This document shows, piece by piece, positions 21,962 to 40,661 of a stretch of DNA of 64,000 nt. Numbering within the stretch: position 1 is the first letter of the stretch; every line of letters starts with the position of its first letter. The DNA lies in the NCBI GenBank assembly GCA_028718865.1, contig JAQUKX010000001.1:64067-128066 (forward strand), given 5' to 3'. This stretch comes from Patescibacteria group bacterium. Lineage in GTDB: Bacteria; Patescibacteriota; Patescibacteriia; UBA1558; GWA2-36-10. The translations under genes and the position numbers were made by a program. A model generated the notes under the pieces. That model was not told the DNA's origin and searched no databases. It saw only the letters and a list, made by a program, of their open reading frames with translations.

Positions 21962-22432
21962 CTATTTTAAAGGCAATTTTTTGTTTTTGAGCAGACGGTT
22001 CAATTCTTTTTGAAAAGTTTTAGCGTCCTTAAAAGAGCGATAAACCGAAGCATAGCGGATATACGCTACTTGGTCAAAAGACTTAAGCCGCTTCATCAGT
22101 ATTTCGCCGATTTGCTGAGAGGTAATCTCGCTGCCAGACTGCTTTTGAATGTCCCTTTCTATGTCGCGAAACAACTTATAAAAATCCTCTTCCCGATAAG
22201 GCCTTTTTTCCAAAGGGATTTTCAGGCTTTTGATCAATTTCTCTTTGTTGTAGCTCTCCCGCCGGCCGTCGCGCTTGACCACGGTCAAATCCAATATTTC
22301 CATTTGCTCAACCGTAGAAAAGCGAAAATCGCAACGACTGCAAACTCGGCGGCGCCTAATACTAAAACCCTCGCCGCTTAAACGAGAGTCTATCACCTTA
22401 GTGTCCTTGCCTTTGCATTCCGGACAATGCAT
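21962..22432 (-). CDS. nrdR: transcriptional repressor NrdR
   Basis: MHCPECKGKDTKVIDSRL... zinc ribbon plus ATP-cone. Confidence 0.9.
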   Translation of the reverse strand: MHCPECKGKDTKVIDSRLSGEGFSIRRRRVCSRCDFRFSTVEQMEILDLTVVKRDGRRESYNKEKLIKSLKIPLEKRPYREEDFYKLFRDIERDIQKQSGSEITSQQIGEILMKRLKSFDQVAYIRYASVYRSFKDAKTFQKELNRLLKNKKLPLK

Positions 22433-22435
22433 GAA

Positions 22436-23629: not shown

Positions 23630-23659
23630 TATTTTGAATTAGTCAATTTACTTATTATT

Positions 23660-24931
23660 TTAAGAAGAAGGCCAAATTGATTTAAACCAATTTTTCAATT
23701 TGGAACTGGTTTTGGCTGCTGAAGAAAAAGGCGACAAATGAGACAAAAATCCGCTGCTGAAATTGATGTTTTGGTGCGCCCAAATCACTAAACCCAGAGC
23801 TGTAGTATACTCTAAATCATTTATCTTATCTATGGCAAAATTACGGTTGCTGGGCAAGCCTAAAAAAGCCGGCAAACCCAAAACTTTTTTGGCCAATTCC
23901 TCCACTAGAGCCAGCTTAGCGCCACCACCGGTCAAAACCACCCCAGCCGGCAACTTGCCTTCTTTGCCAATTTTTTTCAATTCTTGATTTAGCAAAGAAA
24001 AAATCTCCTCCATCCTGGCTTCACAAATCTCAGCTATGTCTTTTTTGTAAACATAGGAGCCTTTTTTCTCGTCTTCAGAATACTTGTGCAGATCCACTTC
24101 GTCTCTTTTGGCAATGCCCTCGCTGATGGCCTGAGCATGATCTATTTTGACTGCTTCGGCCACTTCTACCGAAGTCTTGAGTCCAATAGCCAAATCATTG
24201 GTAATATGACCGGCACCAACTGGCAGAACCGCCGTATGCAAAATATTGCCTTCTTCAAAAACAATCAAAGAAGTAGTAGCTGATCCGATGTTGACCACGG
24301 CCACGCCCAAATCTTTTTGCCGAGGAGTCAAAACTGCCTCAGCTGTAGACAAAATGGAAAAAACAATGGTTTCAATATCTACTCCTGTTCTATAAATAAC
24401 TTTGGTGAGATTTTTAACCTGGGAAGACAAAGCCATAATCACCTGCGTTTCTACTTCCAGACGCACACCGGACATGCCTTGAGGCTCTTTGAGGCCTTTT
24501 TGGTCATCAAGATTATAGCTAATAGGCAAAACATGTAAAACTTCGTAATTGGGCAAAGTAGTAGTGCTCTCTGCCACCTCTAGAGCTCTTTCTACATCAG
24601 AATCCTCTACCTGCTCATTGGCTTTGGCTACAGCGACCACTCCTTTACTGGGCAAAGTCTTGATATGAGCGCCGGCAATACCAACCACGATCTTATCAAT
24701 ACGCTGACCAGTCATTCTTTCGCATTTTTCTATGGTCTCGGAAATGCAAGAAACCGCCTCTTCAATAGAGGCGATGCTACCGCGGCTAATACCCTCGGCT
24801 GGTGTCTCTGCCGCGCCAATAATACTCAATCGGCCATCGGCTACCACCTGTCCCATCACTATCCGAATACTGCTCGTGCCTATGTCCAGTCCGCAAATTA
24901 TGTCTTTTTTACTTGCCATGATTAGCGCCAA
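23660..24931 (-). CDS. ftsA: cell division protein FtsA
   Basis: Actin-like ATPase (GLDIGTSSIR, VVNIGSATT, LTGGGA). It sits immediately upstream of ftsZ. Confidence 0.9.
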   Translation of the reverse strand: MALIMASKKDIICGLDIGTSSIRIVMGQVVADGRLSIIGAAETPAEGISRGSIASIEEAVSCISETIEKCERMTGQRIDKIVVGIAGAHIKTLPSKGVVAVAKANEQVEDSDVERALEVAESTTTLPNYEVLHVLPISYNLDDQKGLKEPQGMSGVRLEVETQVIMALSSQVKNLTKVIYRTGVDIETIVFSILSTAEAVLTPRQKDLGVAVVNIGSATTSLIVFEEGNILHTAVLPVGAGHITNDLAIGLKTSVEVAEAVKIDHAQAISEGIAKRDEVDLHKYSEDEKKGSYVYKKDIAEICEARMEEIFSLLNQELKKIGKEGKLPAGVVLTGGGAKLALVEELAKKVLGLPAFLGLPSNRNFAIDKINDLEYTTALGLVIWAHQNINFSSGFLSHLSPFSSAAKTSSKLKNWFKSIWPSS

Positions 24932-24987
24932 AACTTAACTTATGATTATTAATTATAACTAAATTATTGATTTTTGCCAAATGATAT

Positions 24988-25326
24988 TTATAAAAAAATA
25001 AGCGCTCCTATTATCAGAGCAAAGATACTGGCCAAAAGCACTGTAGCAGCTGCCAAATCCTTGATCTCCTTAGCAAAGGCATGAGTACGTGGGGCTAAAA
25101 TATCCACTAGCCGCTCCAAAGCCGAATTGACTATTTCTAGAGACAAAATCAAAGCAATAGTAACTATCAATATCAGCCAAGACTTGATATCAAGCTGTCT
25201 TTGCCAAGCCAATAAAAGAACTAAAAAAGCTATCACTACCTGAATCCGAAAAGTTTTTTCAGTTTTAAAAACCGTCTTTAATCCCCGAAATGCGTGTCTA
25301 AAACTGCGCCAAAGCGATTGAAACAT
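24988..25326 (-). CDS. dgkA: diacylglycerol kinase (prokaryotic DgkA family)
   Basis: 112-aa 3-TM protein with a conserved E...N..ALE region. The ybeY-dgkA pairing is conserved. Confidence 0.7.
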   Translation of the reverse strand: MFQSLWRSFRHAFRGLKTVFKTEKTFRIQVVIAFLVLLLAWQRQLDIKSWLILIVTIALILSLEIVNSALERLVDILAPRTHAFAKEIKDLAAATVLLASIFALIIGALIFL

Positions 25327-25331
25327 AAAAT

Positions 25332-25745
25332 TTATTTTGCTAAATCTCCCAATATCTCCTCTTCTAGTTTTGTTTGCTGCTTGGCCTCTTGTGCGCTTCT
25401 TTCATGGTCATAGCCCAAAAGATGCAATATCCCATGAACCGTCAAAAGCTGCAGTTGGGACTTGAGGCTTTGTTTTTTTTCTTTGGCTGCCTGCCTGGCT
25501 TGATTGACGGAAATAAGCACCTCACCCAATTCATCGCTAGCAGCCAAAGAAAAGGATAAAACATCAGTAGCCTTGTCTTTGCCGCGGTAAACCCTGTTCA
25601 ATTCCTTCATCTCTTTATCCGACAACAGAGCAATAGAGACATTTTTCAAGTAGCCAAAACGTTTATTGATTATTTTTTCCAAACTTCCCAGCCAAGAAAA
25701 GTCTGCTCGCTGTCCTCTTTTGTTCAAAAACAAAAAATTAGCCAT
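25332..25745 (-). CDS. ybeY: rRNA maturation endoribonuclease YbeY
   Basis: HGILHLLGYDHE metal-binding motif. Confidence 0.9.
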   Translation of the reverse strand: MANFLFLNKRGQRADFSWLGSLEKIINKRFGYLKNVSIALLSDKEMKELNRVYRGKDKATDVLSFSLAASDELGEVLISVNQARQAAKEKKQSLKSQLQLLTVHGILHLLGYDHERSAQEAKQQTKLEEEILGDLAK

Positions 25746-25763
25746 AAATAGAATTACAATAGC

Positions 25764-26789
25764 CTACATACTACTATCCAAAAGCTCAAAGCTGTTTTGC
25801 ATCATTTGAAAAGTAGTATGGAAATTCTCGGTCAAAGCCGCGCCGCTTTCGTAAATAAGTATATAAATAAACTGATTGTTCACTGCCAAAATTTGCTTGC
25901 CGTCAGCTGAGCGCAAAGCTGGTTGTCCAGCCAGAGAATAATTTTGCATATTAGCTGCCGACGGCAACAGATTGCCCAGCTCCTGCCTGGCTTGACTAAG
26001 CGTCAATGCTCCGTCGTTGGCCATGGCATAAATAATGAAAAACTCCCCGGTCTCGGAATCCGGCAAAATCATAATCTGAGATAAGTCATTGCCAATAGCT
26101 TGCGCTACCCAAGGATTGGGCTTGAGCAATGAATAGCCGAACAAAGAATTAATAAACCTGTCTACCAGACCCGAATCTTCCAAACGTCCCGGGCCAAGAG
26201 GGTTATAAAGGTTGACTATCTCCATGCCATCGCTATAACCATCGCGGTCAGTATCAGGATTGTTGGGGTCAGTGCCATAGAGCATTTCTTCTTCATAAGT
26301 AAGCATATCATTATCAGCGTCTATATTGGTAATGGGCGCTGGCTCTGGAGTAGGCGTAGGTTCTGGTATTGGCGCTGGCTCTGGAACCGGCTCGGGTTCT
26401 GGCTGAACTTGCCCAGGTGGCGCCTGAATATTATTGTCAGCCGCGGGAGCTTGCTGGCCTGTCTGACTATCAGCCGGCAAGACCGGCTCTTCTGCTTGGG
26501 AAAAATACCAAAAAATACCCGCTAAGACTCCCCCTGAAATAAACATAAAAACCAAAGTAAAAATAACTATGCCTTTGACCGGTGATTTGACTCGGCTAGC
26601 TTTGACTGTCTTGCCCGGCGAAGCTGGCTTAGGCTCATTTTTGGAAATAGTGAATTTACCCGGCATAACATAAATAGAAGATTGATCAATCTCCGGCTCT
26701 GGAATGCTTTTGGGCTGGATATTTTCCTGATCCTGATCGCTGGCCTGATTAAAATTATTTGGATTTTTTGGGCTGCCAAAATTAAGCAT
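25764..26789 (-). CDS. single-pass membrane protein with Pro-rich linker and thrombospondin type-3-like Ca-binding repeats
   Basis: TM helix, (PEP)n linker, and DADND...DPNNPDTDRDGYSDG repeats. Confidence 0.6.
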   Translation of the reverse strand: MLNFGSPKNPNNFNQASDQDQENIQPKSIPEPEIDQSSIYVMPGKFTISKNEPKPASPGKTVKASRVKSPVKGIVIFTLVFMFISGGVLAGIFWYFSQAEEPVLPADSQTGQQAPAADNNIQAPPGQVQPEPEPVPEPAPIPEPTPTPEPAPITNIDADNDMLTYEEEMLYGTDPNNPDTDRDGYSDGMEIVNLYNPLGPGRLEDSGLVDRFINSLFGYSLLKPNPWVAQAIGNDLSQIMILPDSETGEFFIIYAMANDGALTLSQARQELGNLLPSAANMQNYSLAGQPALRSADGKQILAVNNQFIYILIYESGAALTENFHTTFQMMQNSFELLDSSM

Positions 26790-26823
26790 GATTTCTCAAG
26801 TTTACTGATTATATAAAAATTTT

Positions 26824-27741
26824 TTAATATAAGCGACCTGTACTTTGATATCTACCCAGAGCTTCTTCTATATGCTGCATGGGACGGAAGAAAAAATCAT
26901 CCGGCACTTGCTCCCAGAAGCTAGCTGGCAAGGGTATGGGCATAGCCGGCATTTCATCCAAAAGACCCGGGCCAAGAGGATTATAGTCATTTTCCACTTC
27001 TACTCCATCGCTATAGCCATCGCGGTCAGTGTCGGGATTGTTGGGGTCAGTGCCATAGATAAATATCTCTTCGTAATCAGTCAAACCGTCACCGTCAGTA
27101 TCAGCCAATAGTGGATTGGTGCGATAAACTCTCACCTCGTCATAATCCAGCACGCCGTCATTATCCGTGTCAGGATCATAAGGATTGGTACCCAAGGCTC
27201 TTTCTTCAGCATCACTTAGTCCATCCAGATCGCTGTCTAAAAACCTGTCATCGCCTATATCAATGATGGGATCAACATCTATGGGCGGCTCGTCGCCATT
27301 GCCGTTTTGCCCATTTACTGGTGGTTGCTCAATCGGCAAACCACCCCCTTCCGGCAAAAAATCGCTTCTAAAAACAAAATAATAAAAAGCGCCCCCCGCC
27401 AGTAGCAAAAGAAAAAATACTGATAACACTATAATTATTTTTTGCTTGGGACTTTGCCCCTCGGGAATATCTTGGCTAACCAAGTCTGCCGGCAAAGCTG
27501 GAGCCATTTGTTCGCTCTGCTGAGACGCTTCAGCAGTAGCTAAAGGTAAGCCTTGGTTGGGTGATATGGGCTGCATTTTGCCAGAACGCAAAGCACTAGG
27601 CTTCTCTTCAAATGAAGCGGCTCTTGCGACTGGCGACTGATTGACTTGGGAAGTTGGATCAACATCGGCAAACATATCGTCCAGCTTTTTCGGAACTTGG
27701 CCAGAACTCTGATTTTGATCTTTTTTTAAGTCATCAAACAT
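26824..27741 (-). CDS. single-pass membrane protein with four or more thrombospondin type-3-like repeats; paralog of 25764..26789
   Basis: DSDLDGLSD, DPDTDNDGVLD, DTDGDGLTD and DPNNPDTDRDGYSDG repeats. It shares a 53-nt near-identical tract with its neighbour. Confidence 0.6.
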   Translation of the reverse strand: MFDDLKKDQNQSSGQVPKKLDDMFADVDPTSQVNQSPVARAASFEEKPSALRSGKMQPISPNQGLPLATAEASQQSEQMAPALPADLVSQDIPEGQSPKQKIIIVLSVFFLLLLAGGAFYYFVFRSDFLPEGGGLPIEQPPVNGQNGNGDEPPIDVDPIIDIGDDRFLDSDLDGLSDAEERALGTNPYDPDTDNDGVLDYDEVRVYRTNPLLADTDGDGLTDYEEIFIYGTDPNNPDTDRDGYSDGVEVENDYNPLGPGLLDEMPAMPIPLPASFWEQVPDDFFFRPMQHIEEALGRYQSTGRLY

Positions 27742-27767
27742 GATTTTTTACTATAATTTTTATAAAA

Positions 27768-30700
27768 CTAAGGAGTAGGTAAAGTACAATCCATAAACCC
27801 ATCACCACGGCCATCACAGAAAGTGGAATTAATCACTGATATAGTAGCCGCTGACCAGCCAGTAGTACTACTCAAATACCTGCCACCAGTGCCATCTGCC
27901 AAACATTGTCCATGAGCAGCCAATTCTGCGTGAAAATTAGTAAACAATACCGGACTAATAGCAACTTTTGTATTCTGAGAATTGGCCAAATCTATGGAAT
28001 GAGCTAAAACATCATGAGTGCCTGAACCAAAACTTGTATCTGGATTACAGTTTTCATTTGCTCTCAAAATAGATGCATTACTACCGCAATAACCACCTTC
28101 ATCGCTTACTGGAATAAGCAACCTGTGATATCCTGGTAGCCAATTATAATCTGGAATTATCTTGGTCATAGCATAGCCCCAGTTACTCAATCGTCCAGCT
28201 GCGTCGCCATGTCCGCTTATAAAACCCGGGTCAGGATTACCTATTATATTTAAATAATCCTGGCATCTTTCTCCGTAAAGAACTTGATCCCCATCTGCAG
28301 AAACTTCGCTGTTAATATCATTACTACTATTGTTATAAAAACTCAAATAACGAACTCTTTGGTTATAAGGAGCCTGGCGTAAAGGACAGTCAGTATACAA
28401 AGCTTTGAAGACTACTTGTGATTCATCTAGCCAGCCAGCCGATCCGAGCCAAGGCGATAAGCTCGGTATATCGTCAATGGTGATAGGTGTTAAATAAGTA
28501 GGAGTTACCGGATTGGTATATACACCGCCTCCTGGAACACCAGAGCCATCGGCCGATACTATACCACCGTCATTATCCCCCATTACAAAAATGGATATAC
28601 GATAATCAATGTCCCCGTAAGCGCCACTATCTAAATTATTCACCACCTGCTGCAAAGAGCTGCAAAGAGCGACCGCTCTATCATACATACTACCAGAAAC
28701 ATCAAATACATACACTATGTCTATATCTTTCTCTATCTGCACCGCTGGATCAAAACCAGTATCGCATTGTTCCCACTGCTGCACTATTCCGTCGCCGCAC
28801 CAACCGCCGGTATTGCCGCAACTAACACACTCGTACTGATTGTTGGGAGAGGAAAAATTAGCAAAATTGCTACCCCTAGGCCAAGGGAAACTACCGCCTG
28901 GAGGATTATTGCCACCCGGACCCCAATCGCAGCCTTCGCCAAAAAATACCTGTCTAATTCCGTCACCGCAATAAGGGCCGCTGGGATCGCTTCTTTGACA
29001 CATAAAGCTCCCTGTCATATCACAAGTATAAGTATTGTCCGGACCTGATTGAGCCGGCAAAGGTCTATTTGGATAATGCAGGCCATCACAAACCTCACTA
29101 TAAGCCAATTGGGCAATGCCGTCGCCGCAGTAACCGCCTATTCTAGCTAGACAATCCGCTCGGCAAGAATACTGATTAGTCTGACTTGACTGATCGGGCG
29201 AAGGCGGTGCCGGGCTTTGAGTTATACCTCGCCAAGGATCGCCTGGATCACAGAATTCATCATTACCCAAATCCCAAACGCCGTCGCCGCACCAACCGCC
29301 ATAAGTAGGAGAACAAGCTCCGTAGTTAAGCCCGTTATAAGTAAAATATCCAACTCCATGTGGACGACAAGCGTATTGATTAAAAGGAGTAGAATTAGGA
29401 GGGCTGGGCGTACTATAATTCATCAGATAATCACAATTCTCACCGAATTGAGATTGTAAAGTACCGTCGCCGCAATACTGGCTGGTAAATTGACACAATG
29501 TATTGCAAGCATAGGCTAAATTAGGACCAGAATCATGCGGGCTGGGTGTACTATAATTCATATAATCACACTGCTCTTCCGCTTGCACTATGCCATCACC
29601 GCAATACCCGGCATAAGGGGCGCCAACACTACAAGTCACTTGGCAAGAGCTGTTGCAACTAGCCACGCCGCCATTGGTACAGCCCCAGGTACTCAAGCCG
29701 CTGGGACTGGCTGATGAGTCACACTGCTCTATACCTGCCGACCAAACACCGTCACCACAACGAGCAGCTGGGTAAGCATTGGGTCCTTGATTACACATTG
29801 CCTGACAGCCTTGGCCACAGAATAAACCATGTCCAGACTGACAAATAAAATCACCAGCAAAATTATTACCTTCGCACTGCTCATAATAAGACTGAATAGT
29901 GCCATCACCACAATAACCACCGCATTCAGCCTCACCAAAAGGCGGATCTGGTACATACCAAGTACAGCTGATATCATTGCCGTTGGAGCCAATGGTGCCA
30001 GGCGGATTACAACCAACCATACGCGGTGTCCACCAATCATAGTTAGCTGGACAAGCATTTATAAATCCACCGTCACACTGCTCATTACCGTCAACTATAC
30101 CGTTACCGCAATAAGGACTAGCTGGCCCGCCAGGAGCATTGAGGTTTGTAGCATTACAATAACTAACCAAACCCAAATTGACATTTATACCTAAAGAAGA
30201 AAGTGTTGGTCGCAATCTATTAACAAAATTAATATTATACTGCGCCGGATAAATATCATATTCAAAGTTGGCACCTAAGTCATAATCCTGCCCCCCTGAT
30301 AAAACATTGTATAAATAAACTAAAGAATTTTGAGGACAAACAAAAGTATTAGGATCAACCGACTGATTCCAGCAAGTAGCAGGGTCAGCCCCCTCTGGAC
30401 AACCATTAAATCTATTAATTGGGTCAACTGCTGCCAATGAACCTAAGGCGGAAGAAAAAGCATCCTGCCAAGACGGCCAAGGGCTGGTAGACATGCCTTG
30501 GACATAAGTACCGGCTCCTAAAATAGGGTAATAAGGCCTGCAAGTTTGAGTACCGGGGCAATCATTATCTTGAGCGCAAGCCATCAAACTATTACCGCTG
30601 CAAGCTTTGTGACTTTGGCCGTATTCTTCCAGTCGCAAAGCTATACTAACCAAATCTGCCAAACGCTTGGTATCACGACGGAGCTTGAGTCCTTGGGAAA

Positions 30701-33700
30701 GGCAACGACCCTCACAGTCAAAATCGCTGCTACAAGCAATACTTGCATCTACTTCACAGACATTATTATTATTTTGAGTAATATTAATATTTAATTTAAG
30801 ATTATCCACAAATTGGCTAAAAATATTTATAGTATCCGGCCGAGCGCCAATATTATGCGCTAAAATATAAATATTGGTATACAAATTACCAGATATATTT
30901 GTACCGGCAATATAAATAGTACTGCCTACTTGCAAAGCCTGATAACCATCCACCTCTATCAAAATGCCTGGAATATTGGGGTTGGGGGCATGGCGCAAAA
31001 ACCAATCACGCACTGACAAATGCTGGTCATTTCTCATTATCCTAATACCAATAATATCAATACCTGGCTGAACATCAGCAACAGTCACTACCACTGGCGA
31101 AGAACGACTAAACTGATCGTCTCCGCCCGCACAAGCATCAGCATAAGAAGCCACTATATACTCATAAGTTTGCCCAGAAGCAACTGAAGCATCGGTATAA
31201 TTCAAAGTGGAAGTAGGCAAGGTATTTAGTAGGACATAATTACCGCCTAAAACCCGCCTATAAACCCTGAAGCCAGACGGGGGCAGCTGCAAAGGATTGC
31301 TGGGAGAAGAAGGAGTCAGCCAGCTCAAAGAAACACTATCATCAGTCACTGCTGTCACTTGTAGATTTCTTGGTGCATTAGGTATACACAAATCAATGCC
31401 TTGTTCCTGTCCCTGAGCAGAACCAATACCCAAAAAAGTCAACAGACGATTAAAAGGATTCTCTTTTGCTTGCTTTCTTTGCCGGACCGAATCTGAAGCA
31501 AACGCCAAACTGCCTAATCCGACATCCTCAATATATGAAGAAGTGATCGATGGATTAATAGTAAAAATATACTCCCGCAAACCATCGGTACTAAAATTAT
31601 CTCTAGGCGTAGGCAAATATTGCAAGTGTGGCAAAGATGTGCTACCCGGCAAACCTGAATACTGACAATAGAAAGTAGAAAAATTATAAGTTGACTCATT
31701 CCAAGGAAAGCCAGGAAGACTGGGCCAAGGATTCTCGCAGAAAAAAAGATTGATCAAGCCGCTGGCAGTGGTGGAACTGCCATCATCAGGACTACTGACT
31801 CCCGCACCTAGAGTCACTTGGCCGTTTTGACTGCCAGAAGTAACCAAAGTGTTTCCTGGTAACTGTGCCGCCGCCAAAGTAGCCAAAGAATTACTTAAAG
31901 ACCAAGTAAAATTTAGTAGGCTATTATTGAGAAGCTGGCCGGAAATACTATAGACAAAGGCCTCATAACTGCGCTGATTACCCAGCAAAGGACTGGCATC
32001 ATCAGGACAGTCATTTCTGCCTGTGCAGGTAAACCAGTCTGGAGTAGGGGCAATCCAAGCATTATGGACTCGGCAAGTTTGACCGCCCGTGCTAAAACTC
32101 CAACCCGCCTCGCCTGATAATCCCGGTGGCAAAGACGATAAGCCGGCAGATCCCGCCAAATCCAAAGGTATGTTATTTTGACTGACTACCTGACTAGCAT
32201 CTATTATCGCCATCCAAAATTGAGTATCAGCAGGCAATAAACTGCTAGGATTAAATATTGCCCGAGTTTCTCTTTCTGGATCATCATCCAAATTCATAGT
32301 AACAAAGCGGAAAGAGCCAGGTACTTCAATATAAGAACCATTGTCTTCTCTATATAATTTTATATTATTTCTAATACTCTCCTCGTTCATCCGCTCGGAA
32401 AAATCCAAATAAGGCGAAACATTGGTGCAGATATTTTGTCCAATAGGCTCACGGCCTATGATAGTAGGTGTATTATAAGAAACTGTGGTACCGCTGTTAT
32501 CAATAGTCAATAATCCAAAATCAGAGAAACTGCCGGCAATGGGATCGGTGAGTAAAACATCAACATTAGTACTACCAGACTCAAGAGCTGGTAAATCATT
32601 TCTTACTTGGACAAAACTATTACTACCTGAACCAGGTATTGAAGCTGCTCCTGAGGGAGTAGTATTACTCAAAGACCATTGATAAGTGCAATTAGGACAA
32701 TATACTGGCACGGGTCCGCAATTGGGAATATTGCTAGCCATAGCAGTAGCGTCAAATCTAGAAAGTTGTCCCAGCTGAGTAGATAGCTGTGTGTCGGGAT
32801 CTACATCAGCGCCTGACACCACGCACTGACTATCACCAGTGCTAAAATTCCAGCTAAGACTAACTGTGCTATTACCATCAGAAATAAATCCGGAGCTCAA
32901 AACTATATAATAAGTTTCTCCGGGCAGCAGAGGCCCATTGTAGCCAAAATCCATACGTCTATTGTTGGGGCTGAAAACAACAGAGTCATTAAAAATATTC
33001 GATCCGTTCGGAGCACCTTGATAAATAGCTATATTGCTGATATTAAGCGTGGCCGGCAAAACACTACGATTAAACTCCACTCTGATAATCGGATCCAAAC
33101 ACATGCCATCGCAATTCGGCCAATAATTAGTAATTGCCAAAGGCGTCTGCATAGAACCGCTAATATCCATAAGAAGTTCCCCTTGGGAAACAAAATTTTG
33201 ACCGCCATCAATTATAGTACCTAGTACTTCCGCACTACCTTGGCCAGCCAGCAAAAGATTTTGCACTCCCACTATTTGCTGATTTTGTCCACTGGCAATA
33301 TTTGCCGCTGAACTGTCCGGCAAAACAGCACCCAAAGCCCAGTTGTAAGTACAATTCTGGCAATAAACTATTGTTTCACCGCACTGGGGAGTGCTGCTGA
33401 TAGCATTAAGTCTATAATTGACAATCTGATTGGTAAGACTAGAAGTATAAGTTGACGGCGTAACCCGAGCATTGGAGATAACACACTGGTCATTACCAGT
33501 GGTAAAATCCCAGCTATAATCGGCAGCCAAAGCATTTCCCAATATATCAGTAAAACCTTGGCCCAAAGTAACACTATAAACAACGCCTGGTTGCAAAGGA
33601 ATAGGCAACTGAACATGCAAATATTGACCATTACCGGAAAAGCTATGGACAACTGGAGTAACCAGTGTAGCACCGGCTAACACCCTGATGTCATTTATAT

Positions 33701-36197
33701 CTGCGTGATTGAAAGTGGTTTGATCTATCTCCCTATTAAACCTAACCATCAATTCGGAAGTGGTGCAGGCGCCATCGCAATCAGGCGAGTGACTCAAGAC
33801 TTCCAAATTACCGCTCTCTGAGCTTATGCTCCAAGTATATTCGCAAAAATTAACTGTATCGCAACTGGTGCCACTCATACAAGAACTACCAGCGCTGGTT
33901 GGACAGCAAAGATTGCCTAATCCACTATCCATACATTGCTGATTGCTAGTGCAATTGCCGACATTAAAAGGCCAAGGATTGCTTTCGGTATTATTATTAT
34001 CTCTGACTATCGCCAATCCGGTTTGAGCATTGTTTGGCACACTAGTCATAATCTGATTATTGTTCCAAATCGAAGGAGTAGCCAAAGCGCCGTTGTAAAA
34101 AATAACACTGCCCATAGTAGCGCCAAAATTCTCCCCGACAAAAGTAACTGCCGTGCCTATTGGTCCGTTGTCTGGAGAGACATTACAGATCTGCGGTCCA
34201 GGCAAGCCGGCTAATACTTGGAAATTAACTGAATTGCTTTCAGCTTGGTCTGAATTTCTAATTACCCTAATAGGTTGTCCGCCCAAAGGCAAGCCAGAGG
34301 GCACCTTGACAATAATCCTGTCATTACGCCAATAATTACCGCCGCAAATCGCCGGAAAGCTAAAATCTCCATCTATACTGCCAAACAAAACTCTTCCTTG
34401 AGTATTGCCAAAGTTGGCTCCCATAATAGTGACATACTGGCCTATTGGGCCAGAATTTGGACTGACGCTATTGATTATAGGCAAACCACTTACTTGAGAT
34501 AAAGCTGTAAAAGGATAGGAATTACTCTCTTCTTCACTCGGAGATTCTATAACTACTCCTACATTACCCACTACATTGGGCACTTGGGCGGTATAAAGAT
34601 ATTGGGAAGAAAAATTAACCACACTGCTTTGGAAATTACCAAAATGAATCTGGCTATTATCCGCAAACTTCAAGCCATGGATGGTCACGCTTGTTTCAAA
34701 CGCGCCTGACAGGGGATCCAAACGGCAAATACCAGGCCGGTCAATGTTGTTTCTGGTAAATTGCACACCATTGCTCGTCTCTCCTCCTTCACTTATATCT
34801 TTCGTGATCGTCAATAAGCCATTTACAGCCGCTGCAGGCACAGCAATGACAATATAATTATCAGTCCAGGTATTGCTACACTGATTATTTATATCCGCCG
34901 GACGAATGCCATTGACAGTTGCGCCAGCGCCAGCGTCAAACGTCACTACTCCTTCCAAATCTCCAAAACCACTTCCATAAATGGTAATCAAATTACCTTC
35001 GTTGCCATTATCAGGAGAGATAGAATCAATCCTCGGCCCACCGGGCGTGCCGCTACCGGCACAAATAGCCGCTGGTAGACATGAATTTGACCGACAACAC
35101 CCTGAAGAACAATCGTTTCCCGAAGAACACTCTACTGTAAAAAACTCATTATCACTCTGACCACCGACTTCCACTACTACCTGACTGCTAAGAGCATTGG
35201 CCGGCACCTGGAAATTTATCAAATTATCTGTCCAATTGCTTATATTCAAATCAGTGTTGGTCAAATCAATTGTTTGATCATTTAGCCAGCCCAACATACT
35301 TAAACTTCCTTGAGTATTACCAAAGCCTATACCTTCTATATCCACGTTAATGGGCGCCGTGGCGCTATCAGGATTGAGACAATGGATATCTGGTCCAGTT
35401 ACATTACTGTCAACATTAAAGACAAAATCTGCCAGACCTGGCGGCACTTCATTTATGTTTCCCAAATCATTATAAAGATGAATGGTATAAAGGCCGTCAG
35501 TCAAGGTCAGAGGCACTCTCACATTTACTCTAGTATTTGACCAAGAATTGGCTGTTGTGCCGCCACAGACTACTAATTCAGCAACTGTTTCAGCCCCGCC
35601 AGCATCTCTTAATAAGACTCTACCATCCGCGTCCGGGTTATTATTTCCATTGGTATCAAAATTACGACCCCTGATAGTAATAGAAGCTCCCGGAGGCCCT
35701 GATTGCCTGTTTGTACTGCAAATAATAGGATTATCAGGATTAAGTGGCGCCGGACAATTACTCTGGCCGCCAGGAGGAGGAATACCATTTCCCGGTGTTC
35801 CCGGTGTTCCCGGACCAGTAGCATCATAGAGCTGATTCAGCACAAATCTAGCAATGCCATAAGAAGCCAAAATAATCACCAGACCAATAACAGCACTAAT
35901 AATCAGCATTTTGGCTCTTTGAATTTTGTCAGTTGCCCCGCGCGAGGTCATCCATAAAAATCCGCCATAAAGGAGCAGAAGCACCGCCAAAGTTCCCAAA
36001 AATCCCAAAAATATATTTATCACCAAAGCAATGGTTTCTTGAATAGACCTGGTACCCAAATAAACACCGGCATCAGCCAATTCATCAATGCCCAGCTCCT
36101 GGGCAGCTTGCGCCTGCACTTTGCTCATACTGACCAAAAACAAAGAAGAAGCGCTAAAAGTGATAAAAAATATTTTTTGCATGGCTATATTAAACAT
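27768..36197 (-). CDS. giant (2809 aa) multidomain cell-surface protein, putative adhesin
   Basis: Domain order: signal peptide, VirB2/TrbC-pilin-like two-TM anchor, Gly/Pro linker, five or more IPT/TIG domains, two Big_5/SbsA-Ig-like modules, FN3, about nine Cys-rich CGDG...CD repeats, then a C-terminal VWA domain (DIVYVFDVSGSM). Single uninterrupted ORF. Confidence 0.85.
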   Translation of the reverse strand: MFNIAMQKIFFITFSASSLFLVSMSKVQAQAAQELGIDELADAGVYLGTRSIQETIALVINIFLGFLGTLAVLLLLYGGFLWMTSRGATDKIQRAKMLIISAVIGLVIILASYGIARFVLNQLYDATGPGTPGTPGNGIPPPGGQSNCPAPLNPDNPIICSTNRQSGPPGASITIRGRNFDTNGNNNPDADGRVLLRDAGGAETVAELVVCGGTTANSWSNTRVNVRVPLTLTDGLYTIHLYNDLGNINEVPPGLADFVFNVDSNVTGPDIHCLNPDSATAPINVDIEGIGFGNTQGSLSMLGWLNDQTIDLTNTDLNISNWTDNLINFQVPANALSSQVVVEVGGQSDNEFFTVECSSGNDCSSGCCRSNSCLPAAICAGSGTPGGPRIDSISPDNGNEGNLITIYGSGFGDLEGVVTFDAGAGATVNGIRPADINNQCSNTWTDNYIVIAVPAAAVNGLLTITKDISEGGETSNGVQFTRNNIDRPGICRLDPLSGAFETSVTIHGLKFADNSQIHFGNFQSSVVNFSSQYLYTAQVPNVVGNVGVVIESPSEEESNSYPFTALSQVSGLPIINSVSPNSGPIGQYVTIMGANFGNTQGRVLFGSIDGDFSFPAICGGNYWRNDRIIVKVPSGLPLGGQPIRVIRNSDQAESNSVNFQVLAGLPGPQICNVSPDNGPIGTAVTFVGENFGATMGSVIFYNGALATPSIWNNNQIMTSVPNNAQTGLAIVRDNNNTESNPWPFNVGNCTSNQQCMDSGLGNLCCPTSAGSSCMSGTSCDTVNFCEYTWSISSESGNLEVLSHSPDCDGACTTSELMVRFNREIDQTTFNHADINDIRVLAGATLVTPVVHSFSGNGQYLHVQLPIPLQPGVVYSVTLGQGFTDILGNALAADYSWDFTTGNDQCVISNARVTPSTYTSSLTNQIVNYRLNAISSTPQCGETIVYCQNCTYNWALGAVLPDSSAANIASGQNQQIVGVQNLLLAGQGSAEVLGTIIDGGQNFVSQGELLMDISGSMQTPLAITNYWPNCDGMCLDPIIRVEFNRSVLPATLNISNIAIYQGAPNGSNIFNDSVVFSPNNRRMDFGYNGPLLPGETYYIVLSSGFISDGNSTVSLSWNFSTGDSQCVVSGADVDPDTQLSTQLGQLSRFDATAMASNIPNCGPVPVYCPNCTYQWSLSNTTPSGAASIPGSGSNSFVQVRNDLPALESGSTNVDVLLTDPIAGSFSDFGLLTIDNSGTTVSYNTPTIIGREPIGQNICTNVSPYLDFSERMNEESIRNNIKLYREDNGSYIEVPGSFRFVTMNLDDDPERETRAIFNPSSLLPADTQFWMAIIDASQVVSQNNIPLDLAGSAGLSSLPPGLSGEAGWSFSTGGQTCRVHNAWIAPTPDWFTCTGRNDCPDDASPLLGNQRSYEAFVYSISGQLLNNSLLNFTWSLSNSLATLAAAQLPGNTLVTSGSQNGQVTLGAGVSSPDDGSSTTASGLINLFFCENPWPSLPGFPWNESTYNFSTFYCQYSGLPGSTSLPHLQYLPTPRDNFSTDGLREYIFTINPSITSSYIEDVGLGSLAFASDSVRQRKQAKENPFNRLLTFLGIGSAQGQEQGIDLCIPNAPRNLQVTAVTDDSVSLSWLTPSSPSNPLQLPPSGFRVYRRVLGGNYVLLNTLPTSTLNYTDASVASGQTYEYIVASYADACAGGDDQFSRSSPVVVTVADVQPGIDIIGIRIMRNDQHLSVRDWFLRHAPNPNIPGILIEVDGYQALQVGSTIYIAGTNISGNLYTNIYILAHNIGARPDTINIFSQFVDNLKLNINITQNNNNVCEVDASIACSSDFDCEGRCLSQGLKLRRDTKRLADLVSIALRLEEYGQSHKACSGNSLMACAQDNDCPGTQTCRPYYPILGAGTYVQGMSTSPWPSWQDAFSSALGSLAAVDPINRFNGCPEGADPATCWNQSVDPNTFVCPQNSLVYLYNVLSGGQDYDLGANFEYDIYPAQYNINFVNRLRPTLSSLGINVNLGLVSYCNATNLNAPGGPASPYCGNGIVDGNEQCDGGFINACPANYDWWTPRMVGCNPPGTIGSNGNDISCTWYVPDPPFGEAECGGYCGDGTIQSYYEQCEGNNFAGDFICQSGHGLFCGQGCQAMCNQGPNAYPAARCGDGVWSAGIEQCDSSASPSGLSTWGCTNGGVASCNSSCQVTCSVGAPYAGYCGDGIVQAEEQCDYMNYSTPSPHDSGPNLAYACNTLCQFTSQYCGDGTLQSQFGENCDYLMNYSTPSPPNSTPFNQYACRPHGVGYFTYNGLNYGACSPTYGGWCGDGVWDLGNDEFCDPGDPWRGITQSPAPPSPDQSSQTNQYSCRADCLARIGGYCGDGIAQLAYSEVCDGLHYPNRPLPAQSGPDNTYTCDMTGSFMCQRSDPSGPYCGDGIRQVFFGEGCDWGPGGNNPPGGSFPWPRGSNFANFSSPNNQYECVSCGNTGGWCGDGIVQQWEQCDTGFDPAVQIEKDIDIVYVFDVSGSMYDRAVALCSSLQQVVNNLDSGAYGDIDYRISIFVMGDNDGGIVSADGSGVPGGGVYTNPVTPTYLTPITIDDIPSLSPWLGSAGWLDESQVVFKALYTDCPLRQAPYNQRVRYLSFYNNSSNDINSEVSADGDQVLYGERCQDYLNIIGNPDPGFISGHGDAAGRLSNWGYAMTKIIPDYNWLPGYHRLLIPVSDEGGYCGSNASILRANENCNPDTSFGSGTHDVLAHSIDLANSQNTKVAISPVLFTNFHAELAAHGQCLADGTGGRYLSSTTGWSAATISVINSTFCDGRGDGFMDCTLPTP

Positions 36198-36204
36198 TTT
36201 TTTA

Positions 36205-37830
36205 CTAAGGCACCTGACAATTCACTCCCGGACATTGCGAGCCAGAGGCATTATTATCACAAACACAAGACCCGCCTACTGGATCTTCGCAAGCACAAGG
36301 ATACCAGCAATTTTGCCTGGCATCTTTAATGCCGGAATTAAGCGTAACTCTATAATCAGCACTCAAATCAAAAGTGTCATGCTGAATTCTCAAAGTATCT
36401 CCCGGGCTGCCGCTGTCAATTCTCATCCAATAATTTATCAAGCCACCACCGGATCTTGTTAAATTAACGCTATTGGTATTTATAGAGCTGGAAAGAAGTG
36501 TTTTGTCAAAAACAACTCGAATAGGTTCATTTGCGCCAACGCTATTTGGCTCGTCCATACTGCTAATAACCGGCGGCGTCAAATCAATCTGATTATTAGT
36601 GGCAAACTGCCAGCCATAGCTGGTAGGCGCTACTGCAGCCACACCGCAACTCCCGGCGCAATTGAGTTGATTACCGGCCATATCACGAATATTATTGGTA
36701 ACCTCGCCGATAAAATCAGCGCCGCCGGGAAGGCAATAGACTTCTCCGCCACAGGAATTGTTGCCACAAAGGTCATCCGTCATAAACTCAATTGTCTGAT
36801 ATTGATTGGAAATAACATACTCTCCTGCTACTGGTGAACCTGCCGTACTCACCGTGATGTTGGCAAAAGAAGGGTGTATGCCCACGGCAAATAGCGGATT
36901 GACCGCTTCAGAAAAATTTATTTGCACTATACTGTTTCGAGGATTATTACTTGAATTGTGCCTAGGTTGAACTGAAATAACACGAGGCGGAGCAAGATCA
37001 AGATCGGTACTGACAGTAAAACGCCAGCTATAACCCCCAACCAGCGGAAAAGCCGCTGCTCCAGCAGCTGTACGCAAAGAAGCCAAGTCCATCCTATATC
37101 TGACATTTTCCGTATCACTGCCTAAATGACTATCGGTGTTGCCATAAGGATTAAACTCAAAAACTCGCGGACTAGCCGTATAGCTAATCAGCAAATCACT
37201 ACCGCTAATATAATTATTTGTCCCATCTATATATAACCTGATATTTGTTTCATGAGCCGGACAATCGCTAACACAACTGGCATTAGCCACAATAGTAGAA
37301 ACATCCATATCTTCTCTAAAAGTCACGTAAATATTGGTATTTCTAGGAATCCCCGTAGCATTTCTAGCCGGATAATGACTATCTAGAACTCCGCCTGACA
37401 ATCCAACGCCGCCGCTGTAGCCGCTGCCTACTCCCGAACCACCAGGCCCCTGAATAACATAACGATCATAGTTCTGTAAAATAAAGCGAGCAATAGCATA
37501 GGAAGATAATACTATTACCAAACCAATCACTCCGTTGATAATGATTCTCTTAGCTTTATCTACCTTATCGGAACTACCTCCGGACGTCATCCAAATAAAA
37601 CCGCCGTAGAGTATGATCAAGGTGGTCAAAACTCCCAAAAATCCTAAAAATATATTTATAATCAAAGCAATGGTCTGACGTATATCTCTAGTGCCCAAAT
37701 TAACGCCAGCGTCTGCCAACTCATCAATACCCAATTCTTGAGCAGCTTGAGCCAAAGATAGCTGGGGGAATAAAAAAATAACCGCCAAAAACAAAATAAA
37801 TAAAACGGTTATTTTTTTACGACTAAGCAT
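36205..37830 (-). CDS. 541-aa surface protein with the same VirB2/TrbC-pilin-like N-terminal anchor plus Big_5/Ig-like domains
   Basis: Residues about 27-110 are about 75% identical to the giant protein N-terminus. A Gly-rich linker and PPV...SbsA-Ig-like motifs follow. It ends 7 nt upstream of the giant gene. Confidence 0.75.
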   Translation of the reverse strand: MLSRKKITVLFILFLAVIFLFPQLSLAQAAQELGIDELADAGVNLGTRDIRQTIALIINIFLGFLGVLTTLIILYGGFIWMTSGGSSDKVDKAKRIIINGVIGLVIVLSSYAIARFILQNYDRYVIQGPGGSGVGSGYSGGVGLSGGVLDSHYPARNATGIPRNTNIYVTFREDMDVSTIVANASCVSDCPAHETNIRLYIDGTNNYISGSDLLISYTASPRVFEFNPYGNTDSHLGSDTENVRYRMDLASLRTAAGAAAFPLVGGYSWRFTVSTDLDLAPPRVISVQPRHNSSNNPRNSIVQINFSEAVNPLFAVGIHPSFANITVSTAGSPVAGEYVISNQYQTIEFMTDDLCGNNSCGGEVYCLPGGADFIGEVTNNIRDMAGNQLNCAGSCGVAAVAPTSYGWQFATNNQIDLTPPVISSMDEPNSVGANEPIRVVFDKTLLSSSINTNSVNLTRSGGGLINYWMRIDSGSPGDTLRIQHDTFDLSADYRVTLNSGIKDARQNCWYPCACEDPVGGSCVCDNNASGSQCPGVNCQVP

Positions 37831-37853
37831 GGGTTTTATCTTAAACTAATTAA

Positions 37854-38297
37854 TCAAAGGTCCAATTTTTCTTTTATCAGACGCTGGACCAAAGAGCCTT
37901 CGGCTCGGCCTTGCAGTCTGACCATGGCTTCTTTCATAGCCGGGCCAAAATCATTTTTGCCTTCACTAATAATCTGATCAATTATTTTACTCGCTTCTTC
38001 CTCTGAGAGCATGGCCGGCAGATAAGCCTGCAAAATCTCCGCCTCCTGCTTTTCTTTTTGGGCCAGATCAGCTCTATTGGCCTGCTGATAAGCGGCCATG
38101 GAGTCTTGTCTTTTTTTTAGCTCTTTTCTGATAAGAGCCAAGACATCATTATCGGACAATGCTTGGTGTTTTTTCTCAATAAAAAAATTCTTCAGAGCGC
38201 TTCTCAGCAAGCGCAAAGTCTGAAGCCTGATTTCATCTTTTTCTTTTAGGGCAGACTTGAGATCTTGTTCTATTTTTTCTTCCAAAGAAATATCCAT
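37854..38297 (-). CDS. yqeY: GatB/YqeY domain protein
   Basis: 147-aa ORF typical of YqeY. The rpsU-yqeY pairing is conserved. Confidence 0.8.
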   Translation of the reverse strand: MDISLEEKIEQDLKSALKEKDEIRLQTLRLLRSALKNFFIEKKHQALSDNDVLALIRKELKKRQDSMAAYQQANRADLAQKEKQEAEILQAYLPAMLSEEEASKIIDQIISEGKNDFGPAMKEAMVRLQGRAEGSLVQRLIKEKLDL

Positions 38298-38301
38298 TTA
38301 T

Positions 38302-38559
38302 CTATCGCTTTTTGTTGCTTTTTCCTTTTTTGAAGCCGCCAAAATCCTCTAGCTTACCGATGCGCTTAAGATAATCCATTTTGGTGCCTATCTTATTGCG
38401 TCTGAGAGCGCCTTCTTTTAGAGCTCGCTTGCTTTTCTCCTTGGTGAAAAATCTTACTTTTTTAGCTTGCAAAATTTTGCCGCTTTGGATTGTTTTTTTG
38501 GTAAATCTACGAATTAAACTTTCAAAAGATTCTCCGTCCTTCCTCTTTACTTCCAACAC
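38302..38559 (-). CDS. rpsU: 30S ribosomal protein S21
   Basis: 85-aa basic protein (VKRKDGESFESLIRRFTKK...) resembling S21. Confidence 0.75.
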   Translation of the reverse strand: MLEVKRKDGESFESLIRRFTKKTIQSGKILQAKKVRFFTKEKSKRALKEGALRRNKIGTKMDYLKRIGKLEDFGGFKKGKSNKKR

Positions 38560-38658
38560 TTAAAAATCACCTCCGTTTCTTAAAAATAAATTATTTAATA
38601 ATAATTTCTATTTTCTAATTTCTGCTATAATAATGACAAATTATCACTCAAAAGTCAA

Positions 38659-39996
38659 CTACTGAACTGGTTTTTTGAGCTTGATTTGCTTGGCAGCGTG
38701 AGCAGCCAGTCTTTTTTTGATTTCTGACTTGATTTTGTTGAAATCCACTACCTCTTGAACGCCACTTTCCATATCGCGAATAATAATAGTGCCGTCGCTT
38801 ATTTCCTTTTGTCCCAAAATCAAAGTAAACTTGGCACCCTTTTTATCAGCAATATCAAGCTGGTCTTTTAGGCCTTTTTTGGAAAAATTTTCCCACAGAA
38901 GCAGCTCCTCTTTTCTTAACTGTTCAAAAAGAAATAATGATTTTTTGCGAGCTTCTTGCCCTAGTTGGGCAACATAAACATCAATTTCTTTTTTTCTCGG
39001 CACTTCCACTTTGTTTTCTGCCATGGCCAAAATAATTCTTTCTACACCCAAAGCAAAACCAACGGCCGGAGTTGGCCGGCCGCCCAAATCCTCCACCAGA
39101 TAATCATAACGACCGCCGCCACCCAAGGCGCTGAGCTTGCCCTCCGGCTTATCACTCTGACTGATAAATATCTCCCAAGCTGTCCGGCTATAATAATCCA
39201 ATCCCCGGACTATAGCCGGATTGAGCACATAATTGATATTCATTTCATCAAGATATTCAACTACTGCCATAAAATGCTCTTTGCAAGGTTCGCAAAGATG
39301 ATCCAGTATCTGCGGAGCTCCTTGGGAAATCTCCTGGCATTTTTTGTTTTTACAATCCAAAAGCCGCAAAGGATTTTTGCCCAGACGCTTCAAGCAATCT
39401 TTGCATAATTCTTTTTTGTTGTCCTGATAATATTTTTTCAAAACTTTGATATACTGAGGGCGGCACTGGTTGTCGCCGATGCTGTTGACATGGATTTCTG
39501 CTTCTAGCCCCAAATCTTTGATAAGATTATAAGAAATGCCAATAAGCTGAGCATCAATCACTGGATCGCTTTCACCAAAAACCTCGCAACCGAACTGCCA
39601 AAACTGGCGGTAACGGCCGGCTTGAGGATTGTCATGGCGAAACTGCGGACCAAAATAAAAAAGCTTGACCGGCTGAGGCAAGTTGACCATGCCGTGCTCA
39701 ATATAAGCTCTGGCCACCGAAGCAGTGTTTTCCGGACGAAGCGACAGCTTATCACCACCTTGAGTGACAAAAGAATACATTTCTTTGCTGACTATATCAC
39801 TTTCTTCCCCGACTGTCCGCTTAAACAAATTGCTGAATTCCAAAATTGGCGTATCAATGCGCTTGAAGCCGTAAGCTTGCGAAATAGCATCGGCTTTTTC
39901 TTTGATAAAATCCCAATAAGGCTGATCATCGGGCAAAATGTCCTTCATGCCCTTGACCAGTTGGATTTTGTTCTTCTTGGATTTTTTGCTGCTCAT
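38659..39996 (-). CDS. hisS: histidyl-tRNA synthetase with Cys-rich insertion
   Basis: Class II motifs (FRHDNPQAGRYRQFWQFGCEVFG, GGGRYD) are present. The insertion is C-x2-C...C-x4-C...C-x2-C. Confidence 0.9.
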   Translation of the reverse strand: MSSKKSKKNKIQLVKGMKDILPDDQPYWDFIKEKADAISQAYGFKRIDTPILEFSNLFKRTVGEESDIVSKEMYSFVTQGGDKLSLRPENTASVARAYIEHGMVNLPQPVKLFYFGPQFRHDNPQAGRYRQFWQFGCEVFGESDPVIDAQLIGISYNLIKDLGLEAEIHVNSIGDNQCRPQYIKVLKKYYQDNKKELCKDCLKRLGKNPLRLLDCKNKKCQEISQGAPQILDHLCEPCKEHFMAVVEYLDEMNINYVLNPAIVRGLDYYSRTAWEIFISQSDKPEGKLSALGGGGRYDYLVEDLGGRPTPAVGFALGVERIILAMAENKVEVPRKKEIDVYVAQLGQEARKKSLFLFEQLRKEELLLWENFSKKGLKDQLDIADKKGAKFTLILGQKEISDGTIIIRDMESGVQEVVDFNKIKSEIKKRLAAHAAKQIKLKKPVQ

Positions 39997-40001
39997 AATA
40001 T

Positions 40002-40661
40002 TTATGGATATTGAGGCAAATTAAAAGTGCCCAGCCGGTTAAAAGGCCAGCCTCTGACCCAGACCCGGCCGATAATGTTGCTTTTGGCTATAGGTCCAAG
40101 CTGGCGGGAATCAAAACTATTGATGCGATTGTCGCCCAAGATAAAATACTGATCATCAGCCAAGGCCACACTGGGATGATCCTCAGTGGAAAAATGACTG
40201 ATGTACTCCTCAGCTAGAATTTGGCCGTCTATATAGACGCGACCTTCTTTCAAGCTTACTTCTTCACCGGGCAAACCAATGACTCTTTTGATAAAATAAC
40301 TACCCCGTTGACGAGGATTTTTGAAAATAATCACCTCACCTCTTTGCGGCTCATTGAAGCGATAAGATATCTCATCAATTATCAAATATTCATTTTCATA
40401 AAAATTGGGCTCCATGGAAGCGCCCTCTACATAAAAAGGTTGAATGAGAAACATCCGCACTGGCAGAATAATAGCCAAAGATATCAAAACAACTTTGATT
40501 ATCTCAAAAATAAACAGGCCTATTTTTTTACCAAAACTCAAGCCCGGATCCTCGTCGTTTTGGGAAAAATTGTCCAAATCCAAATCATCAGGCTCAAATT
40601 CCGGCTCTTGGCGGGAAAAATGGGCAAAATCATTTTCCTTATCTTGTTTCTCGTTTTCCAT
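40002..40661 (-). CDS. lepB: signal peptidase I
   Basis: GASMEPNF and GDNRINSFDSR boxes. The longer track ORF ending at 40760 would start with TTG (per my position count) and covers the promoter. The ATG at 40659-40661 (MENEKQ...) is preferred. Confidence 0.85.
   Translation of the reverse strand: MENEKQDKENDFAHFSRQEPEFEPDDLDLDNFSQNDEDPGLSFGKKIGLFIFEIIKVVLISLAIILPVRMFLIQPFYVEGASMEPNFYENEYLIIDEISYRFNEPQRGEVIIFKNPRQRGSYFIKRVIGLPGEEVSLKEGRVYIDGQILAEEYISHFSTEDHPSVALADDQYFILGDNRINSFDSRQLGPIAKSNIIGRVWVRGWPFNRLGTFNLPQYP

Follow-up and report, generated by a model that had tools for sequence, protein, structure and literature searches.

Why should a bacterium carry four genes for putative surface proteins, one of them 2809 amino acids (aa) long, in the middle of a string of housekeeping genes? 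The question is raised by a stretch of 64,000 nucleotides (nt), referred to here as the window, from a Patescibacteria group bacterium (assembly GCA_028718865.1, contig JAQUKX010000001.1, positions 64,067 to 128,066). Open reading frames (ORFs) and Pfam matches give the following order on the minus strand of the window: lepB-hisS, then rpsU-yqeY-P541-giant-TSPa-TSPb-ybeY-dgkA, and then ftsA-ftsZ-nrdR. P541, the giant gene, TSPa and TSPb form the module discussed here, and the rest of the window around it consists of housekeeping genes. The reading that we favor, with a probability of about 0.7, is that the module is an ancient, vertically inherited part of the core genome of a deep Patescibacteria (Parcubacteria-type) lineage, that it belongs to an rpsU-dgkA unit, and that it has a role in the envelope or in attachment.

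The eight genes of the unit were named and placed by an earlier note on this DNA, and both the ORFs and the Pfam matches agree with it. The unit begins with rpsU, which encodes ribosomal protein S21 from a GTG start (38302..38559, 28.1 bits against a cut-off of 27 for the S21 family), and yqeY, which encodes a GatB/YqeY domain protein (37854..38297, 135.7 bits). These are followed by P541 (36205..37830), a protein of 541 aa that matches T4SS_pilin with 32.8 bits (cut-off 26.6) and Big_5 with 80.5 bits, and by the giant gene (27768..36197), whose product matches T4SS_pilin with 28.0 bits as well as TIG, Big_5 and fn3. TSPa (26824..27741, 305 aa) matches TSP3_bac with 84.1 bits, far above the cut-off of 25, and TSPb (25764..26789, 341 aa) reaches 21.5 bits, just below the same cut-off, with one clear DPNNPDTDRDGYSDG repeat. 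The unit ends with ybeY (25332..25745, 115.8 bits), the gene of an rRNA maturation RNase, and dgkA (24988..25326, 104.8 bits), which belongs to the prokaryotic diacylglycerol/undecaprenol kinase family. From yqeY to ybeY the gaps that border and separate the surface genes measure 23, 7, 26, 34 and 18 nt, in agreement with the 7-34 nt given before, and across the whole rpsU-dgkA stretch they are 4-34 nt.

How old is this arrangement? Relatives were retrieved through homologues of YqeY and through homologues of YbeY. An alignment of the P541 family was used to scan metagenomes, which gave 79 loci, and the window proteins were mapped by phmmer onto these and 12 earlier loci (labels such as L028 denote the loci of relatives). 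In the relatives found through YqeY, whose YqeY is only 52-56% identical to that of the window, lepB-hisS-rpsU-yqeY is followed by a T4SS_pilin/Big_5 protein of 530-568 aa and then by a T4SS_pilin protein of 3000-3500 aa. Those found through YbeY show the other half of the arrangement, giant-TSPa-TSPb-ybeY-dgkA-ftsA-ftsZ-nrdR, and in L028 the entire unit is present within 15.5 kb, with hisS at one end and ftsA at the other. By phmmer mapping a full P541 homologue is present in 51 loci, where the upstream gene is YqeY in 43, S21 in three and HisRS in one, and a pilin-anchored giant protein is encoded next downstream in all 36 loci with continuing sequence. Altogether about 45 independent metagenomic and genomic relatives have the same four genes at the same site. 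HisRS of these relatives is 43-72% identical to that of the window and the body of P541 is 32-59% identical; the P541 family comprises 635 representative clusters at E<=1e-30. Wherever a relative has a member of the P541 family, the module is found at this site, and it is absent only from distant outgroups.

Local departures from this arrangement were also seen. The yqeY gene has been lost from the diverged loci L039, L046, L048, L049 and L053. P541 directly follows S21 or HisRS in the first four of these, and in L053 about 1.6 kb separates S21 from P541. Locus L041 has an insertion of about 4.7 kb between yqeY and P541.

In two outgroups the site is empty. In the complete 'Candidatus Nealsonbacteria' genome CP179887.1 the order is lepB-hisS-HIT-(73 aa)-yqeY, with ybeY overlapping yqeY and then ftsA-ftsZ. 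A contig scan with YqeY gave only two distant loci, one of which, a Saccharimonadales contig, served as the second outgroup; it reads S21-yqeY-adk-map-ftsA-ftsZ-nrdR and has no module. Since the outgroups have the site without the module, the module is an insertion relative to an older gene string. The view that yqeY and ybeY are normally close neighbors is supported by the overlap of the two genes in the Nealsonbacteria genome, and the description of the module as embedded between two housekeeping pairs is accurate also in an evolutionary sense, as the pairs are adjacent in the outgroup. The arrangement can be compared with the Bacillus-type cluster rpsU-yqeY ... phoH-ybeY-dgkA-era, with yqfA-D, phoH and pgpH as intervening genes. 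In both cases only a few genes separate rpsU-yqeY from ybeY-dgkA on the same strand, but in the window four surface-protein genes stand between the pairs and the string runs on into ftsA-ftsZ. A single insertion between yqeY and ybeY, into a string lepB-hisS-rpsU-yqeY-ybeY-ftsA-ftsZ older than the lineage, would account for these observations, and the module would have been held at this position ever since.

Could the module instead be an adhesion island that was acquired recently and landed in a housekeeping operon? The earlier note had raised this possibility. Gene pairs that are adjacent in the outgroup are interrupted here and the tetranucleotide profile of the giant gene deviates from that of the rest of the window, which speaks for such an island. 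However, the same four genes occupy the same site in about 45 independent relatives that have diverged to 43-57% HisRS identity. The guanine plus cytosine (GC) content of the module, 0.43-0.46, is the same as that of its flanks, and the GC content at third codon positions is somewhat lower in P541 and the giant gene (0.35-0.36). No tRNA genes were found in the window, no integrase domain among the ORFs of the module and its flanks that were scanned by Pfam, and no repeats at the module borders. It is another stretch of the window, 44.6-46.6 kb with a GC content of 0.26, that forms its real compositional island. The comparison of yqeY-ybeY synteny among related genomes had been suggested as a check, and the presence of the module throughout the lineage, with HisRS identity down to 43%, is the very outcome that the earlier note had named as speaking for an ancient rather than a recent arrival. 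A recent acquisition is thus contradicted by the data and very improbable.

From which promoter are the module genes transcribed? It had been proposed that a promoter at 40696-40724 drives the whole string. This site exists (minus strand, TTGATT-17-TATAAT with a TGTG extension) and is conserved, with a TTG(A/C)TTTTA...TTGTGTATAAT element upstream of lepB also in L003, L004, L006, L021, L024, L030 and L031. It belongs, however, to lepB, the gene of signal peptidase I (40002..40661, minus strand, Peptidase_S26 157 bits), as it lies about 35 nt upstream of the true start, the ATG at 40661. This start gives a protein of about 219 aa, and the lepB copies of relatives encode 216-220 aa. The histidyl-tRNA synthetase gene hisS follows at 38659..39996 on the same strand (Pfam). 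A nearer conserved promoter is located at 38630-38658, upstream of rpsU on the minus strand (TTGACTTTTG...TTTGTCATTAT), with the -35 element TTGACT, a 17-nt spacer and the TG-extended -10 element CATTAT. Across 22 relatives, at a protein identity of about 50%, this element is near-invariant, with no change in 21 columns, although the intergenic sequence around it is unconserved. The S21 start follows 56-86 nt downstream of it. It is therefore more likely that the transcript covering the module starts at 38630-38658 rather than at 40696-40724.

A third conserved promoter lies before ftsA (24952..24980, minus strand, TTGGCA-17-TATAAT, 11 of 12 consensus positions), and its sequence, TTTGGCAAA...TTTAGTTATAAT, is kept in L008-L011 and L028. 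The downstream division genes of the conserved string, ftsA (ATG at 24919), ftsZ and nrdR, occupy 21962..24919 on the minus strand by Pfam. Between S21 and DgkA no gap has a median above 28 nt in the relatives, most of which have TSPb overlapping ybeY. It is the two larger gaps, hisS-rpsU (median 138 nt) and dgkA-ftsA (median 68 nt), that carry conserved sigma-70-type promoters. Within rpsU-dgkA the gaps of the window and its relatives are almost pure A/T and are too short for a promoter plus leader, and no terminator-like site was found in any of these gaps in the window. The stretch from rpsU to dgkA therefore has what is looked for in an operon by consensus and conservation: one strand, short gaps, a conserved order, a promoter at the 5' end and no internal terminator seen. 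Because the genes share a strand, the gaps are tiny and the gaps have no terminator-like site, co-transcription is the default expectation, and it is plausible, judging from sequence, that the module is co-transcribed with rpsU/yqeY and ybeY/dgkA. The region would then be expressed as three units: lepB-hisS, rpsU through dgkA including the module, and ftsA-ftsZ-nrdR. The middle unit of eight genes (rpsU-yqeY-P541-giant-TSPa-TSPb-ybeY-dgkA) would start at a sigma-70-type promoter and leader before rpsU and end before the ftsA promoter. The module would most likely be transcribed with the ribosome-related genes, and read-through from the lepB promoter, or more generally between the units, is possible.

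The 5' leader of rpsU (38560..38629, minus strand) contains an A/T hairpin (38588-38607) and a strong Shine-Dalgarno sequence, GGAGGTG (38568-38574). A hairpin just 3' of the -10 element, with some compensatory changes, is seen in most relatives, and the window has the A/T-only hairpin instead. Tested as a hand-specified structure, the hairpin has moderate support, with 79% of cells paired compared to 40-61% in slid controls. RNAalifold, when applied to the alignment of promoter and leader, picked only the promoter's own TGAC/GTCA inverted repeat, and the leader has no Rfam match. The hairpin could be an mRNA-stabilizing 5' stem or an element for the autoregulation of S21. A strong Shine-Dalgarno sequence is present only at rpsU, and the module genes lack one altogether, thus translation levels may differ widely within one mRNA. 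The P541 start is marked by a conserved CCCATG in most relatives.

These observations bear on whether position and regulation are linked at all. The module may sit where it does as a frozen accident, with its genes driven mainly by promoters of their own inside the upstream coding sequence. The gene order is indeed very stable, with secE-nusG to comEC collinear among relatives, weak promoter-like matches within genes are many, and the internal genes, unlike rpsU, have no Shine-Dalgarno sequence, so that expression could be uncoupled at the level of translation. However, the short gaps (7-34 nt in the window, median <=28 nt in relatives) and the TSPb/ybeY overlap have persisted over deep divergence, and it is the two larger gaps that have conserved promoters. 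The gaps have no terminator-like site, and their A/T sequence is unable to form a G+C-rich stem. In addition, where yqeY has been lost, P541 directly follows S21 or HisRS in four of five loci, L053 being the exception. An arrangement without regulatory coupling is considered rather unlikely.

What do the four genes encode? P541 has a signal peptide, a VirB2-like hairpin of two helices (aa 1-125), a Gly-rich linker, three Big_5 immunoglobulin (Ig)-like domains and a Cys-rich C-terminus. The giant protein begins with a similar VirB2-like hairpin (aa 1-125, nt 35823-36197), which is followed by four IPT/TIG domains, Big_5 and fn3. Cys-rich acidic repeats come next, at about nt 28788-29930 (TIGR02232, 48.6 bits, cut-off 20.8), and the C-terminal domain (nt 27771-28820) contains a DxSxS motif. 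Both anchors pass the gathering score of PF18895 (T4SS_pilin) given above, and both score below the cut-offs of TrbC (PF04956) and of NCBIfam NF045849. Neither protein is a small stand-alone pilin of about 100-180 aa, as the hairpin makes up only the N-terminal 125 aa of 541 and 2809 aa. With the signal peptide removed, the predicted topology places the parts C-terminal of the hairpin outside the cell. Proteins of the P541 type are named only 'hypothetical' or 'Ig-like domain-containing' in the databases, and searches of the PDB with the P541 and TSPb sequences gave nothing informative.

The C-terminal part of the giant protein varies strongly, with 12-53% identity between sublineages. Within its C-terminal domain, an alignment of close orthologues shows conservation of VYVFDVSGSM, PVSDE and DTGG. 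The vWA-type Pfam families match it only with E-values of 0.046-0.09, a profile search of this part against the PDB gave no match, and a single-sequence AlphaFold2 model had a predicted local distance difference test score (pLDDT) of 31.

The two anchors resemble one another. When the P541 hairpin (nt 37456-37830) is aligned with that of the giant protein, the identity is 61% over 125 aa (E 2e-36), and a 127-nt core of the two is 79% identical at the DNA level. Among 27 genomes the two anchors of the same genome have a mean identity of 65%, compared to 52-54% for orthologous anchors between genomes. Paralogous anchors from different genomes are 51% identical, which equals the identity of orthologues, and the best match of an anchor is the partner in its own genome in 15 of the 27. 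Since anchors of the same genome are more alike than orthologues, the anchors evolve in concert, and this points to a possible direct interaction between them or to a shared, fast-evolving partner. Recent gene conversion over the whole anchor in the window was considered and is not supported, the third-position identity being 0.44.

TSPa and TSPb are paralogous type II membrane proteins whose genes share a 123-nt repeat at 79% identity. In TSPa the cytoplasmic tail and the single transmembrane helix are followed by a linker and TSP3 calcium-binding repeats. TSPb likewise has a cytoplasmic tail and one transmembrane helix, after which come a linker rich in Pro, a single TSP3 repeat and, at the C-terminus, a PsbP/Mog1-like domain. 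TSPa passes the PF18884 (TSP3_bac) threshold and TSPb, which is just under it, is linked to the family by its clear repeat and its paralogy to TSPa. The AlphaFold2 model of TSPb has a pLDDT >90 over most of aa 160-335, and a Foldseek search with its C-terminus matched PsbP (2xb3) with an E-value of 2.8e-6, a probability of 1.0 and a target TM-score of 0.56; target TM-scores to PsbP structures in general were 0.46-0.57. The C-terminal domain of TSPb is therefore predicted, on the basis of the model, to have a PsbP/Mog1-like fold. The cytoplasmic tail of TSPb contains a motif, IHVMPxKF, that is conserved among orthologues and reads IYVMPGKF in the window (aa 37-44, about 26658-26681, minus strand). 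The tail is otherwise unconserved and disordered, and a cytoplasmic partner may dock at this motif.

From their topology and domain types, the four proteins are predicted to be located at the cell surface, and their most likely role is in an envelope or attachment structure that is made constitutively. P541 and the giant protein would be held in the membrane by hairpins of the VirB2 or type IV secretion system (T4SS) pilin type and would project Ig-like stalks with Cys-rich, possibly vWA-like ends. The two paralogous single-pass membrane proteins would add calcium-binding TSP3 repeats, and one of them also the PsbP/Mog1-like domain. Together the proteins would form a constitutive envelope or host-attachment structure that is made in step with growth, alongside ribosome and division genes.

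What kind of structure would this be? It could be an envelope layer or a wall-spanning scaffold that is tied to dgkA, ftsA and ftsZ for growth and division, instead of a pilus or an adhesin for hosts. Big_5 Ig-like domains are typical of S-layer-type proteins, and the TSP3 repeats and the PsbP/DcrB-like domain would suit envelope scaffolding. The ybeY-dgkA-ftsA-ftsZ genes always come after the module, LytR-CpsA-Psr and signal peptidase genes lie just upstream, and such universal retention fits a structural component better than an accessory adhesin. Two observations speak for a different role, however: the strong variability of the giant C-terminus (12-53% identity) is more typical of a tip that faces a ligand or host, and the conserved ftsA promoter parts the division genes from the module. 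We regard a division-linked scaffold as doubtful. Another suggestion is that the hairpins are pilin modules that assemble with one another, and perhaps with stand-alone VirB2-like pilins, into a T4SS-type filament or membrane platform that displays the giant adhesin, with its expression wired to growth through the rpsU promoter. This is speculative and quite unlikely. If it were true, the concerted evolution of the anchors would reflect direct interaction, and the module would define a class of giant adhesins fused to pilins, belonging to the core genome of a large clade of Patescibacteria.

How do these proteins compare with known systems? Their parts are of kinds that are already known, namely VirB2-like pilins, Ig-repeat giant adhesins, TSP3 repeats and the PsbP fold. 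Tandem 'VirB2 arrays' of small pilins in Patescibacteria are described in passages of Quinonero-Coronel et al. (2025, PMC12102498), and such arrays are also attributed to Wang et al. (2023) in the part of PMC12857230 that cites them. The passages of PMC12102498 on small-pilin arrays contain no fusions of the hairpin to large proteins. The module anchors resemble VirB2/TrbC-type pilins in having a signal peptide, two hydrophobic helices, a short basic loop and a PF18895 match, and stand-alone pilins of 110-180 aa on other Patescibacteria contigs match the module anchor (phmmer E<1e-5). The module differs in that its hairpins carry fused extracellular regions, about 400 aa long in one protein and about 2700 aa in the other, and in that its genes lie in a housekeeping operon and not beside virB4. 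Tandem arrays of up to 12 stand-alone pilin genes (110-180 aa) homologous to the anchor were also seen among loci L057-L090, for example in L066 (9280-15773) and L065 (1726-6334). The literature that was searched contained nothing on a VirB2-type hairpin fused to large extracellular proteins, on this gene cluster, on a pairing or concerted evolution of two such anchors, or on a fixed place for them in a core operon, and they are unnamed in the databases.

Giant Ig-repeat adhesins such as SiiE, the SasG/Ebh-type proteins and the Mobiluncus adhesin share with the giant protein a very long stalk of Ig-like, TIG or fn3 domains and a distinct distal domain. Unlike these, the giant protein has no LPXTG/sortase or type I secretion signal and has an N-terminal VirB2-like hairpin instead, and its gene is core-genome and syntenic, not accessory. 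The TSP3 calcium-binding repeats of TSPa and TSPb are like those of the Myxococcus CglD/MtsD-type proteins (NF033765, NF047639), and the Cys-rich acidic repeats of the giant protein are like the myxococcal Cys-rich repeat (TIGR02232). The match is limited to the repeats, however, and full-length scores are far under the cut-offs (39.7 bits against 400), so the module proteins are not orthologues of these families. The modelled C-terminus of TSPb aligns with PsbP, CyanoP, Mog1 and Tsi3 of the PsbP/Mog1/DcrB/Tsi3 fold family, but the identity is 11-15%, there is no Pfam match and the context is not photosynthetic; the likeness is one of fold, not function.

Several points weigh against the reading of the module as an ancient envelope or attachment structure in an rpsU-dgkA unit. 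The collinearity of the relatives extends over the whole of a region of about 40 kb, thus conserved position alone is no proof of functional coupling to the ribosome genes. Matches to 9 of 12 consensus promoter positions are numerous inside genes, and promoters within coding sequence are possible. The tetranucleotide correlation of the giant gene with the whole window is 0.71 (28001-36000), compared to about 0.95 for other 4-kb blocks, at a normal GC content; this is probably due to its unusual amino acid composition, which is rich in Gly, Ser, Asn and Cys. No T4SS ATPase or other T4SS gene was found among the 36 larger ORFs of the window that were scanned by Pfam. Finally, the C-terminus of the giant protein looks vWA-like, but no vWA-type profile matches it above threshold and its PDB search gave no match.

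Two other features of the window deserve mention. A cobalamin riboswitch (21797-21942, minus strand, 46.5 bits) lies downstream of nrdR and upstream of a 593-aa Prenyltrans/DUF4430 gene, an arrangement that is kept in relatives. At 44626-46642 (and 46796-47764) there are two minus-strand ORFs with a GC content of 0.26, compared to about 0.43 elsewhere in the window. The first encodes 301 aa with a weak FemAB/GNAT-like Acetyltransf_6 match, and the second encodes 372 aa with no Pfam match. They are located between pth and a leucyl aminopeptidase gene and are absent from relatives, and the aminopeptidase is 322 aa long in the window and 496 aa in relatives. The stretch at 44.6-46.6 kb looks like the real recent insertion of the window, and the insertion of these ORFs possibly truncated the aminopeptidase gene.

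What does the module mean for the organism and its lineage? Patescibacteria are thought to live attached to other microbes, and outside the Saccharibacteria little is known of how they build their surface and recognize a host. The module is as stably inherited as the adjacent ribosomal and division genes and is therefore a candidate, across the lineage, for a core structure of the envelope or of attachment. The correction of the mobile adhesion island reading is relevant to the inference of horizontal transfer from neighborhoods of this kind. The linkage to rpsU, ybeY and ftsAZ, together with the three conserved promoters, provides a testable model in which surface synthesis would be tied to growth in very small genomes.

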